47,719 nt of DNA from an archaeon (GTDB lineage: Archaea; B1Sed10-29; WALL01; WAMD01), in the NCBI GenBank assembly GCA_024275655.1, contig JAJRYR010000063.1:1-47719 (forward strand). The letters run 5' to 3'. The notes beneath the pieces were generated by a model. The model ran no database searches and was not told the DNA's origin. It saw only the letters and a program-made list of their open reading frames with translations. Positions 8,314 through 9,861 of the stretch are shown in pieces (within the stretch, counting starts at the first letter, position 1; the number at the start of each line of letters is the position of its first letter). Both the position numbers and the translations under genes were made by a program.

Positions 8314-9861
8314 ATGGCGGGAAAGAAGAAGAAAAAGAAGTCTGAAAAGAAGAAAAAGGAAGCAAGGAAGACTGCTAAGAAAAAGGTCAGCAAGGGCAAG
8401 AAGTCAAAAGCAAAGGCAAGCACAAAGAAAAAGCAAACCAAATCCAAGAAAAGCGTGAAGGCGAAAAGCAAGAAAGCAAAGAAAACCAAGAAGACCAGCG
8501 GAAAGGCGAAGAAGACGGTGAAGAAAACTGCCAAGAAAGCTACAAAGAAAACCACTAAAAAGGCAACAAAGAAATCTGCCAAGAAAAAGACAGTGAAAAA
8601 GACCAGTAAGAAGAAAACCACAAAGAAGACAACTAAGAAAAAGGCGGGCAAGACCACCAAGAAAGCCAAAAAGAAGCAGGCAAAAAAGGAAAAGAAGAAA
8701 GAAGTAAAGAGACCTGCTAAGAAAAAGGAGAAAAAAGGAAAAAAGGAAAAAGCTGTTGAGGAAGAAGAGATCGTGATAATCAAACTAGAAGCCGAACCAG
8801 AGGAACAAGAGGAGGGACCAAGGGAGCAAAAGATAGTTATTGAGCTCCCCGAAAAAGAGGAGATCCCTGGACCTGAACCAAAGCCAGAGGAGCCAGTGGA
8901 ACTAGTGCAGGAGGAGGCAAAGGAGATCCCGAGAGAGGCTCCGCAGCCAGGAAAGCCCAGGTGTCCTGATTGTGGATCCACAAACCTAAGATGGGATTAT
9001 GAAAAGGCGGAGCTAGTATGCTTGGACTGCGGGTCAATAATTGAAGAGAGCATGATTGACTATGGGCCAGAATGGAGAGCATTTGATTCCTATCAAAAGA
9101 CAAAAAGGCAAAGAACAGGATCCCCAATAAAGTACACAAAGCCCAACAAAGGGTTGGTAACAGAGATAGATAGATACAATAGAGATATAAGAGGTAGCAA
9201 GCTCTCTCCACAGGCGGCTAGCCAAATGGGAAGGCTTAGAAAATGGCACAAGAGATCCAGTATTGCCAGCTCAATAGAGAGAAATCTAACCATTGCCATG
9301 GGAGACCTGGAAAGGATTTCTTCTTATTTAGGTTTACCACCAAACATACGAGAAGCAGCGGCTCTGCTTTATAGAAAGGCAGTAGAAAAAGGGCTAATCC
9401 GAGGAAGGTTAATAGAGAGCGTGGTCGCAGCTGTTGTATACATGATATGTAGACAGTATGGAATACCTAGAACTCTAGATGAGATTGCAGAAGTGTCAGG
9501 AATCTCAAAGAAGGAGATTGGAAGAACTTACAGATTCTTGAAGAAGGAGTTGTACGTAGATGTGCCTTTGACAAATCCAATATACTATGTCCCTAGATTT
9601 GCGAGTGCACTGGGATTGAGCGGAAAAGTGCAGGAGAAAGCAAAGGAAATCTTGCAGGATGCAGTTGAGAAAGGATTGATAAGTGGAAGAGGACCTACGG
9701 GCGTTGCAGCGGCTGCTGTTTACATTGCCAGCGTGATGATGGGTGAAAGGAGAACGCAGAAGGAAGTGGCAGAGGTAGCTGGAGTTACGGAAGTAACCAT
9801 AAGGAACAGATACAGAGAGCTAAAAAGAGAGTTAAACCTGGATATACAGGAGGAGGACTAA
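8314..9861 (+). CDS. tfb: transcription initiation factor IIB (TFB) with a long Lys-rich/acidic N-terminal extension
   Basis: CPDC...CLDC Zn ribbon, [47 protein letters not shown] before ATG 8314. Confidence 0.96.

Follow-up and report, generated by a model that had tools for sequence, protein, structure and literature searches.

A polylysine and acidic N-terminal arm on the sole TFB of a hydrothermal-vent Micrarchaeota genome

In archaea the place of TFIIB is taken by TFB, as a rule a compact protein of ~300 amino acids (aa) whose N-terminal ribbon enters the polymerase. We analysed a stretch of 47,719 nucleotides (nt) of contig JAJRYR010000063.1 (assembly GCA_024275655.1), hereafter called the window, which belongs to the ~0.7-Mb genome of a hydrothermal-vent member of the Micrarchaeota and carries, at positions 8314..9861 of the + strand, a tfb gene encoding 515 aa from an ATG start. 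The product is a genuine, full-length TFB, encoded by the genome's only TFB locus, and bears 215 residues in front of its Zn ribbon, namely a 148-aa polylysine tail followed by a 67-aa acidic and proline-rich segment. What is new here is a conserved acidic bipartite motif within this second segment, a motif that was matched in no other protein family by profile search. The reading that we prefer, held with slightly more belief than doubt, is that the arm is a disordered polycationic DNA anchor combined with a docking motif, which grew in place on a real and sole TFB within one archaeal family. In the literature searched, no paper was found on a lysine-rich or extended N-terminus of an archaeal TFB, and none on TFB, by title, under 'Alv-FOS5', the source name of the related protein P0004.

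The TFB core and its N-terminal arm

By every sequence test, the window protein is a member of the TFB family. It scored 446 bits with the NCBIfam model NF001658 (cut-off 384), aa 214-512 being aligned with profile positions 13-311 of 312; because this match is nearly full-length, the core is complete and ~200 residues are extra to it. The Zn ribbon (B-ribbon; 8959..9084, + strand, aa 216-257) was recognised by PF08271 with 61.8 bits (cut-off 29), and its cysteines, Cys 217, 220, 236 and 239, are invariant in an alignment of 49 sequences. Two TFIIB cyclin-fold repeats follow at 9283-9546 and 9559-9828 (span 9283..9828, + strand), where PF00382 gave 69.4 and 97.2 bits (150.8 bits for the two stretches together), and Pfam matches of helix-turn-helix (HTH) type at aa 477-501 mark a C-terminal HTH. 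The Zn ribbon, the reader/linker region, the two cyclin repeats and the C-terminal HTH are all present. The core is the same as that of a canonical archaeal TFB (NF001658, or PF08271 with two PF00382 repeats) and is 80-81% identical to 299-302-aa TFBs of related Micrarchaeota and Diapherotrites, whereas the 215 N-terminal residues are additional. Unlike the nearest canonical TFBs, the window TFB also ends in a short acidic C-terminal stretch. In the genome, which comprises 710,335 bases in 73 contigs and is 87.9% complete, PF00382 matches were confined to the open reading frame (ORF) at 8314..9861. Since this is the sole TFB locus found, the window TFB is presumably the working initiation factor, and it would presumably support promoter-directed initiation with TBP and RNA polymerase (RNAP).

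An earlier note on this DNA, made from the sequence alone, had placed about 215 aa before a Zn ribbon starting near nt 8959, and had divided them into a K/A/T/S low-complexity block and an E/P-rich block. Both descriptions hold, as the PF08271 match begins at aa 216 (nt 8959) and the two blocks measure 148 and 67 aa. The first, the polylysine tail (8314..8757, + strand, aa 1-148), is made of KKT[TA] units, contains 53% K, 13% T, 11% A and 7% S, and has a net charge of +75; its DNA consists of imperfect tandem units of 12, 24, 9 and 21 nt. The second (aa 149-215; E 34%, P 18%) has a net charge of -15. The earlier note had taken it for an acidic/proline linker. Its acidic character was confirmed, but it is not a mere linker: it holds the conserved bipartite motif (8758..8871, + strand, aa 149-186), after which comes a variable acidic/proline linker (8872..8958, + strand, aa 187-215; P 28%, E 28%) that differs in length and sequence among orthologues.

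An AlphaFold2 model of the window TFB, built on a 49-row alignment (mean pLDDT 66.7, pTM 0.44), was confident over the ribbon and the cyclin repeats, with pLDDT mostly > 86 from ~aa 321 on, and gave pLDDT < 50 at aa 27-154, 162-168, 170-174 and 191-210. The N-terminal arm, including the tail, is predicted to be disordered. A sequence search with aa 1-215 found no PDB chain at E <= 1, and an ESM Atlas search with the same residues returned no usable match. Across the family, the polylysine tail measures ~100-150 aa and has a conserved composition and a non-conserved sequence; in the long forms of TFB, K and R together make up a stable 32-43% of the extension.

The motif consists of two short hydrophobic, strand-like runs, I153-L158 (nt 8770-8787) and KIVIEL, K173-L178 (nt 8830-8847), with P162 between them. 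Its consensus in all long forms is [DE]3-E-I-x-I-[IKT]-K-[LIV]-[EQ]...P...[KR]-E-x-[KR]-I-[VIT]-[ILM]-[DE], in short EEEIxIIKL...P...KIVIE; in the window TFB it occupies aa 149-180. The residues E, I, I, K, P, E and I (E-I-x-I-x-K...P...E..I) are invariant in 8/8 sequences. A single-sequence search with aa 140-215 in 5.8 billion proteins returned only the query and P0002 and was replaced by a profile search because it was too insensitive. Against the 11,821 open frames of the genome, the motif profile found only the window TFB (E 7e-13; next best 0.33), and against 1.84 billion cluster representatives it gave a single match, the long form P0008. We read this element as a putative short linear docking motif within a disordered region. 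A SUMO-interaction-like reading of the two hydrophobic/acidic runs was also considered and was dropped for want of support; a search of the genome (88% complete) with PF02597 found no ThiS/MoaD-type ubiquitin-like protein, other ubiquitin-like families having not been searched.

Translation, distribution and origin of the extension

The ATG at 8314 is preceded, at a distance of 4 nt, by the Shine-Dalgarno (SD) sequence AAGGTGA (8303..8309, + strand), which overlaps the TGA stop codon (8307-8309) of a co-oriented Gar1-like gene of 73 aa lying directly upstream (8088..8309, + strand). This Gar1-like ORF reached 20.7 bits with Pfam Gar1 (cut-off 29.3) and E 3.7e-9 with the NCBIfam Gar1 models, all under the curated cut-offs. 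By tblastn, gar1 was found at 15/22 related loci; L006-L008 and L010 have it next to tfb, and L022 has it ~800 nt upstream. Whether the TFB is long (L007, L008) or short (L010, L011), its start codon follows a GGTGA/GGTGG module. In the short forms the start codon leads directly into M-K-C-P-E-C-G, whereas ~180-240 residues intervene in the long forms. The ribosome-binding site, which the earlier note had judged to be good, thus belongs to a junction conserved in relatives.

The same note had stated that no Met occurs between residue 1 and the TFB core, and indeed Met is found in the window TFB only at residues 1, 247, 305, 329, 377, 475 and 476. The two other sense frames contain 9 stops each within 8314-8958. 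The Met of the short-form start 'M-[KR]-C-P-x-C-G', two residues before the first Cys, is kept in 4/9 long forms (P0003, P0005, P0006, P0008) and is lost in the other five (P0001, P0002, P0004, P0007, P0009), among which is the window protein. As these five have lost the ancestral ribbon-proximal Met, their arm cannot be skipped. Near the ribbon there is no ATG and no conserved SD-led GTG or TTG, and among the in-frame GTG codons of the window extension none has a well-spaced SD sequence. The best internal start is a GTG at nt 8893 (V194), which follows GAGGAG at a short spacing of 3 nt, and this site is not conserved in L007 and L008.

A related strain, represented in an independent public run, provides a second view of the junction. 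One 4614-nt contig of this run spans 8050-9900 in one piece, with 116 substitutions and six indels of 3, 6, 3, 9, 15 and 12 nt, all of them in the tail and all multiples of three. Four public runs contain the stretch, with shares of 0.06-0.17 and no RNA run listed among them; the uncovered parts in runs X2-X4 were not used. We also computed pN and pS between four species-level genomes of the family. These are reported separately, and no dN/dS ratio is given, because synonymous sites are saturated (pS 0.70-1.02). The pN values were 0.31-0.59 for the tail, 0.32-0.42 for the motif, 0.45-0.57 for the linker and 0.03-0.08 for the core. The extension is genuine coding sequence, and it is very improbable that it stems from an assembly join or is an untranslated leader. 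Both conditions that the earlier note had named as refuting the fusion, an internal start near the ribbon and an assembly join, were checked, and neither refutes it. The view that the fusion is real is therefore upheld by the start context, the strain indels and the conservation in the family, all consistent with translation from ATG 8314.

A B-recognition element (BRE)/TATA-like element read from the sequence, CGAAAAA TTTATAAA (8049..8063, + strand; CGAAAAATTTATAAA), lies ~25-30 nt before the gar1-like ATG and is likely to be the promoter of a gar1-tfb operon. TTTAWA matches occur at 8032 and 8056 and none was found between 8192 and 9367, hence none inside the extension. A promoter before gar1 together with the lack of TTTAWA inside the extension would suit a single transcript of the operon, in which tfb is an internal cistron led by its SD sequence.

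To place the arm among TFBs, homologues were searched in the 5.8 billion proteins and the extension lengths were taken from the 120 best of them. In 96 of these, at most 15 residues precede the ribbon; 6 have 16-30, 5 have 31-60, 2 have 61-130 and 10 have more than 130, the remaining one being without a recognisable ribbon. The closest homologues are TFBs recorded under Candidatus Micrarchaeota or Diapherotrites, and the genome relatives are titled Candidatus Micrarchaeota or Nanobdellati, in agreement with the DPANN host supposed earlier. Eight other proteins of 474-539 aa have the architecture of the window TFB; one of them, P0004, comes from an Alvinella-associated vent fosmid. In a survey of 31 species genomes of the class, TFB frames of at least 475 aa were found in 4/4 genomes of the window's family (f1, in which G000 is the window genome) and in 0/9 genomes of the order's other three families. 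Such a frame is also present in one further genome of another family, G020.

A tree of 135 proteins, built from the core only (FastTree, SH-like support), grouped the nine long forms, each a protein cluster, into one clade (support 99) nested among 16 short forms. On its stem 18 core positions changed, for example D260Y and Y306G between the ribbon and the first repeat. Shorter K-rich N-tails (P0037 with P0039, P0043, P0044, P0067, P0099 and P0115) are scattered over the same tree. These sequence comparisons indicate a single origin for the long arm, basal in the window's family, and several origins for K-rich TFB N-tails in Micrarchaeota. The arm grew in place between a conserved start and the ribbon and is not a fusion with another gene. 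Imperfect tandem units and in-frame strain indels point to growth of the tail largely via slippage of codon-multiple AAG/AAA/ACN repeats.

In G020 the TFB frame (L012, G020:C5 1471..2961) runs over 500 codons from an ATG led by GAGGTG, its first 140 aa being rich in R/K/S. The gene calls in public records start it at an internal ATG (P0029, 318 aa) and its nearest relatives are not long, for which reasons it was not counted as a second confirmed long form. It may be a second, under-called long form, and it illustrates that homology-guided choice of start codons may shorten such genes.

TBP, chromatin proteins and K-rich tails in the genome

The only TBP found in the window genome is a 90-aa single-repeat ORF on contig C25 (L059, 1486..1758, + strand; PF00352 105.9 bits), and G001 and G002 likewise have a single one-repeat TBP gene. 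The comparison of TBP genes covered the relatives L066, L069 and L070-L078. Sister families carry 2-3 separate single-repeat TBP genes of two types, which are 71-75% (type 'a') and 54-60% (type 'b') identical to the window TBP. The window's family keeps only the type-'a' half-TBP, and the second paralogue of the sister families was not found in it. A two-repeat TBP of the ordinary kind is present in the remaining families of the class, and in G019 one repeat is almost a copy of the other. The sole TBP of the window genome presumably acts as a homodimer, and may deserve attention for its own sake. In Euryarchaeota, proteins with a monopartite TBP domain exist alongside full TBPs (PMC3597702), and our literature search found no report of a monopartite TBP as the sole TBP. 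It should also be noted that a type-'a' half-TBP of a sister family (L075, G010:C33) ends in a short K-rich tail (…TGKPAEKAKTVAKKPKKK).

When the motif was folded with two copies of the 90-aa TBP, it obtained a score of 0.48, as compared with 0.01 for the best of three controls. The runs share at least 63% of contacts, the partner has a pLDDT of 48 or more, and the fold supplied no interface. In the calibration of this test, the mark was reached by 116/157 solved complexes and by 2/215 mismatched pairs; at scores <= 0.60 it was reached by 18 of the 157 solved complexes and by both of the passing mismatches. The motif-TBP fold used alignments made for this analysis and two copies of one chain, unlike the calibration set. 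That the motif docks TBP is possible but, on this modelling, doubtful. Known precedents for such an interaction are Brf1 homology block II and the acidic TAND of TAF1, TBP-binding segments that lie outside the TFIIB core and are partly acidic and disordered. They would be analogues only if the weak motif-TBP prediction holds, and they differ from the window motif in being eukaryotic, in lying elsewhere in the protein and, apparently, in sequence.

The genome encodes a canonical 90-aa Alba. PF00808 recognised only an atypical 118-aa histone-fold protein (21.8 bits; contig C58, L003 1333..1689, - strand), which has an acidic N-terminus and a coiled-coil-like C-terminus. With PF00808 and the histone of G003 as queries, no canonical histone was found in G000 (88% complete), G001, G002 or G020, whereas canonical histones were found in 8/9 sister-family genomes and in G003 (67 aa, near a contig end). 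A look at tfb paralogues and at histone and Alba genes, which the earlier note had proposed, thus gave a sole TFB, an Alba and no canonical histone. A link between the long arm and the loss of canonical histones was considered and is not taken as evidence: G003 has a histone, and the coincidence involves at most two independent lineages.

Tails rich in K recur in the proteome of this genome. TFE-alpha (233 aa) carries a 55-aa K/S/T-rich C-terminal tail after its Zn ribbon; among relatives, the TFE tail measures 55 aa in G000, ~15 aa in G001 and 33 aa in G005, and is missing from most others. The ribosomal proteins S19e and L31e also bear K-rich low-complexity tails, as do a PIN_5 protein and, on contig C62, a small tail-anchored ORF; in a 124-aa ORF on contig C38 (11800..12174, + strand) the last 60 residues are KKTT repeats. 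If its translation began at an internal Met, this last ORF could yield a stand-alone polylysine protein of 62 aa. The K-rich-tailed ORFs lie at C52 2549..3250 (- strand) and, on the + strand, at C67 19534..20139, C67 20668..21063, C67 1760..2392, C62 2905..3372 and C38 11800..12174.

Possible functions of the arm

In the mechanism that we marginally favour, the disordered polycationic tail would bind DNA non-specifically. It could thereby keep the sole initiation factor concentrated on the chromosome, and could steady the TBP-TFB-DNA-RNAP complex through additional contacts that do not depend on sequence. The acidic spacer would hold the tail off the ribbon, which must insert into the RNAP dock, and the conserved motif would be a docking peptide for a partner, the sole candidate tried being the half-size TBP dimer.

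Anchoring of DNA by the tail is suggested by analogy with bacterial proteins. Streptomyces DdbA joins an H1-like domain to a DksA-like RNAP-binding domain and binds and condenses DNA in vitro; like the window TFB, it carries a lysine-repeat, H1-tail-like N-terminal arm on a factor acting on RNAP (PMC3643593). DdbA differs in being bacterial, of unrelated fold, accessory and non-essential, and its arm of ~93 aa, built of S/T-A/T-A-K-K repeats, lacks both an acidic segment and a conserved motif (PMC3643593). Lysine repeats of actinobacterial TopA are reported to stabilise the enzyme-DNA complex (PMC5714199), and the lysine-repeat tail of Mycobacterium smegmatis Ku is said to stabilise or modulate DNA binding (PMC3553676). 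Both tails resemble the window arm as low-complexity lysine repeats appended to a DNA-directed protein, and differ in being C-terminal, bacterial and on enzymes or repair proteins, not on a basal initiation factor.

The likeness to histone H1 tails and Hc1 that the earlier note had pointed out extends to composition and not to family membership. The C-terminal domain of histone H1 and Chlamydia Hc1/Hc2 are K/A/T/S-rich disordered polycations, as is the window tail (PMC3643593). A globular H1 domain, an Hc1 match and S/TPKK motifs are all missing from the window arm; linker-histone H1 and Hc1 were absent from the 6 Pfam families matching the window protein at E <= 0.01, as was any similar PDB chain from the search described above. 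The tail is moreover, unlike H1 or Hc1, one arm of a sequence-specific initiation factor. A match to the actinobacterial principal sigma factor model PRK05901 (21.1 bits, cut-off 711) was rejected as compositional, because only the K-rich N-terminal part aligns.

Several points weigh against the reading of the arm as an anchor with a docking motif. Binding to DNA is deduced from the charge of the tail and from analogous proteins of other phyla. The sequence of the tail changes rapidly, by slippage, and comparable tails appear and vanish on other proteins, such as TFE, a pattern that would also suit low-complexity growth which the cell tolerates. The exit channel for RNA is close by, and a polycation in that place might have RNA as its ligand and not DNA. 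The motif is given no confident structure by AlphaFold2, its pLDDT barely reaching 50 at aa 155-161 and 175-190, and the result with TBP is weak, being by the calibration oftener wrong than right unless the interaction is likely beforehand. Lastly, a minor short isoform is possible, since the GTG at V194 is preceded by GAGGAG.

The earlier note had proposed that the factor carries in its arm a module of its own for compacting chromatin, displacing histones or separating phases, possibly restrained by the acidic linker. This would account for the adjacency of the basic and acidic blocks and for the H1- and Hc1-like composition of the arm, and DdbA is an example of such a domain, attached to a factor that acts on RNAP, with the ability to condense DNA in vitro (PMC3643593). 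The lack of a detected canonical histone in G000, G001, G002 and G020 also means that other polycations may matter for DNA packaging. We nevertheless consider this proposal improbable. Displacement of histones is unlikely here, because no canonical histone was found to displace in the window genome, as far as 88% completeness allows; an initiation factor is an unlikely bulk packaging protein; there is no match to the H1 or Hc1 families. As to restraint by the linker, a net charge of -15 cannot neutralise one of +75, and the conserved hydrophobic residues of the motif would be superfluous for masking charge.

It is similarly unlikely that the tail has no specific function and is a harmless product of slippage at repeats, tolerated at a disordered N-terminus in a lineage where AAG/AAA expansions come easily. 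The tandem units of 12, 24, 9 and 21 nt, the in-frame indels between strains, the poor conservation of the tail sequence (pN 0.31-0.59) and the sporadic K-rich tails on unrelated proteins and on TFBs of scattered lineages are what such a process would leave. However, the arm is kept in all 9 clade members despite saturated synonymous sites, its composition is stable and its pN is well below pS; it contains the conserved motif, and in the 5/9 long forms without the old start codon it cannot be skipped.

More unlikely still is an action of the tail on RNA, by which it would capture the nascent transcript, aid promoter escape or link transcription to ribosomes. The B-ribbon sits beside the RNA exit channel in initiation complexes, and similar tails occur on the RNA-binding proteins S19e and L31e and the PIN_5 nuclease of the same genome, but a K-rich tail is also borne by TFE-alpha, a DNA-side factor. 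Finally, it is highly improbable that the extension is untranslated and the true product starts near the ribbon: the GTG at V194 with its nearby GAGGAG and the internal ATG chosen by public annotation for the long frame of G020 (318 aa, P0029) are outweighed by the conserved gar1-stop/SD/ATG junction, the missing internal Met, the in-frame strain indels, the lost short-form starts, a pN below pS and the lack of a TTTAWA element inside the extension to drive an internal transcript.

The anchor-and-docking reading can be widened to a basal machinery rebuilt as a set, a proposal to which we give little credence. It would bring together the sole half-TBP acting as a symmetric homodimer, the canonical histones not found in 3/4 genomes of the family, and a TFB arm whose conserved acidic peptide clamps TBP, as the Brf1 block does, and whose polylysine tail grips the flanking DNA, as an H1 tail does. 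If this were true, the arm and the single-repeat TBP would fix the orientation and the stability of the initiation complex on a little-packaged genome. TFE-alpha carries a similar tail. The interest of the arm would rise if it proves to be linked to the single-repeat TBP.

More generally, the window TFB suggests that a basal factor can itself acquire regions like those used by eukaryotic factors for tethering and for the recruitment of partners. It offers a natural and simple system for asking what a polycationic tail contributes to the search for promoters and to the stability of the complex, whether an additional clamp is needed by a TBP that is monopartite and presumably homodimeric, and how DNA is bound in genome-reduced DPANN archaea seemingly without canonical histones.

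Two further open frames accompany the tfb gene. A 264-aa antisense frame with runs of F, L and S (8187..8981, - strand) lies opposite the polylysine tail; it is likely to be the expected shadow of an AAG/AAA-rich coding sequence and not a gene. On the other side, a convergent ORF of 117 aa (9858..10211, - strand), whose matches to DUF1697 and sCache_4 are weak and fall short of the respective thresholds, overlaps the tfb stop codon by 4 nt.

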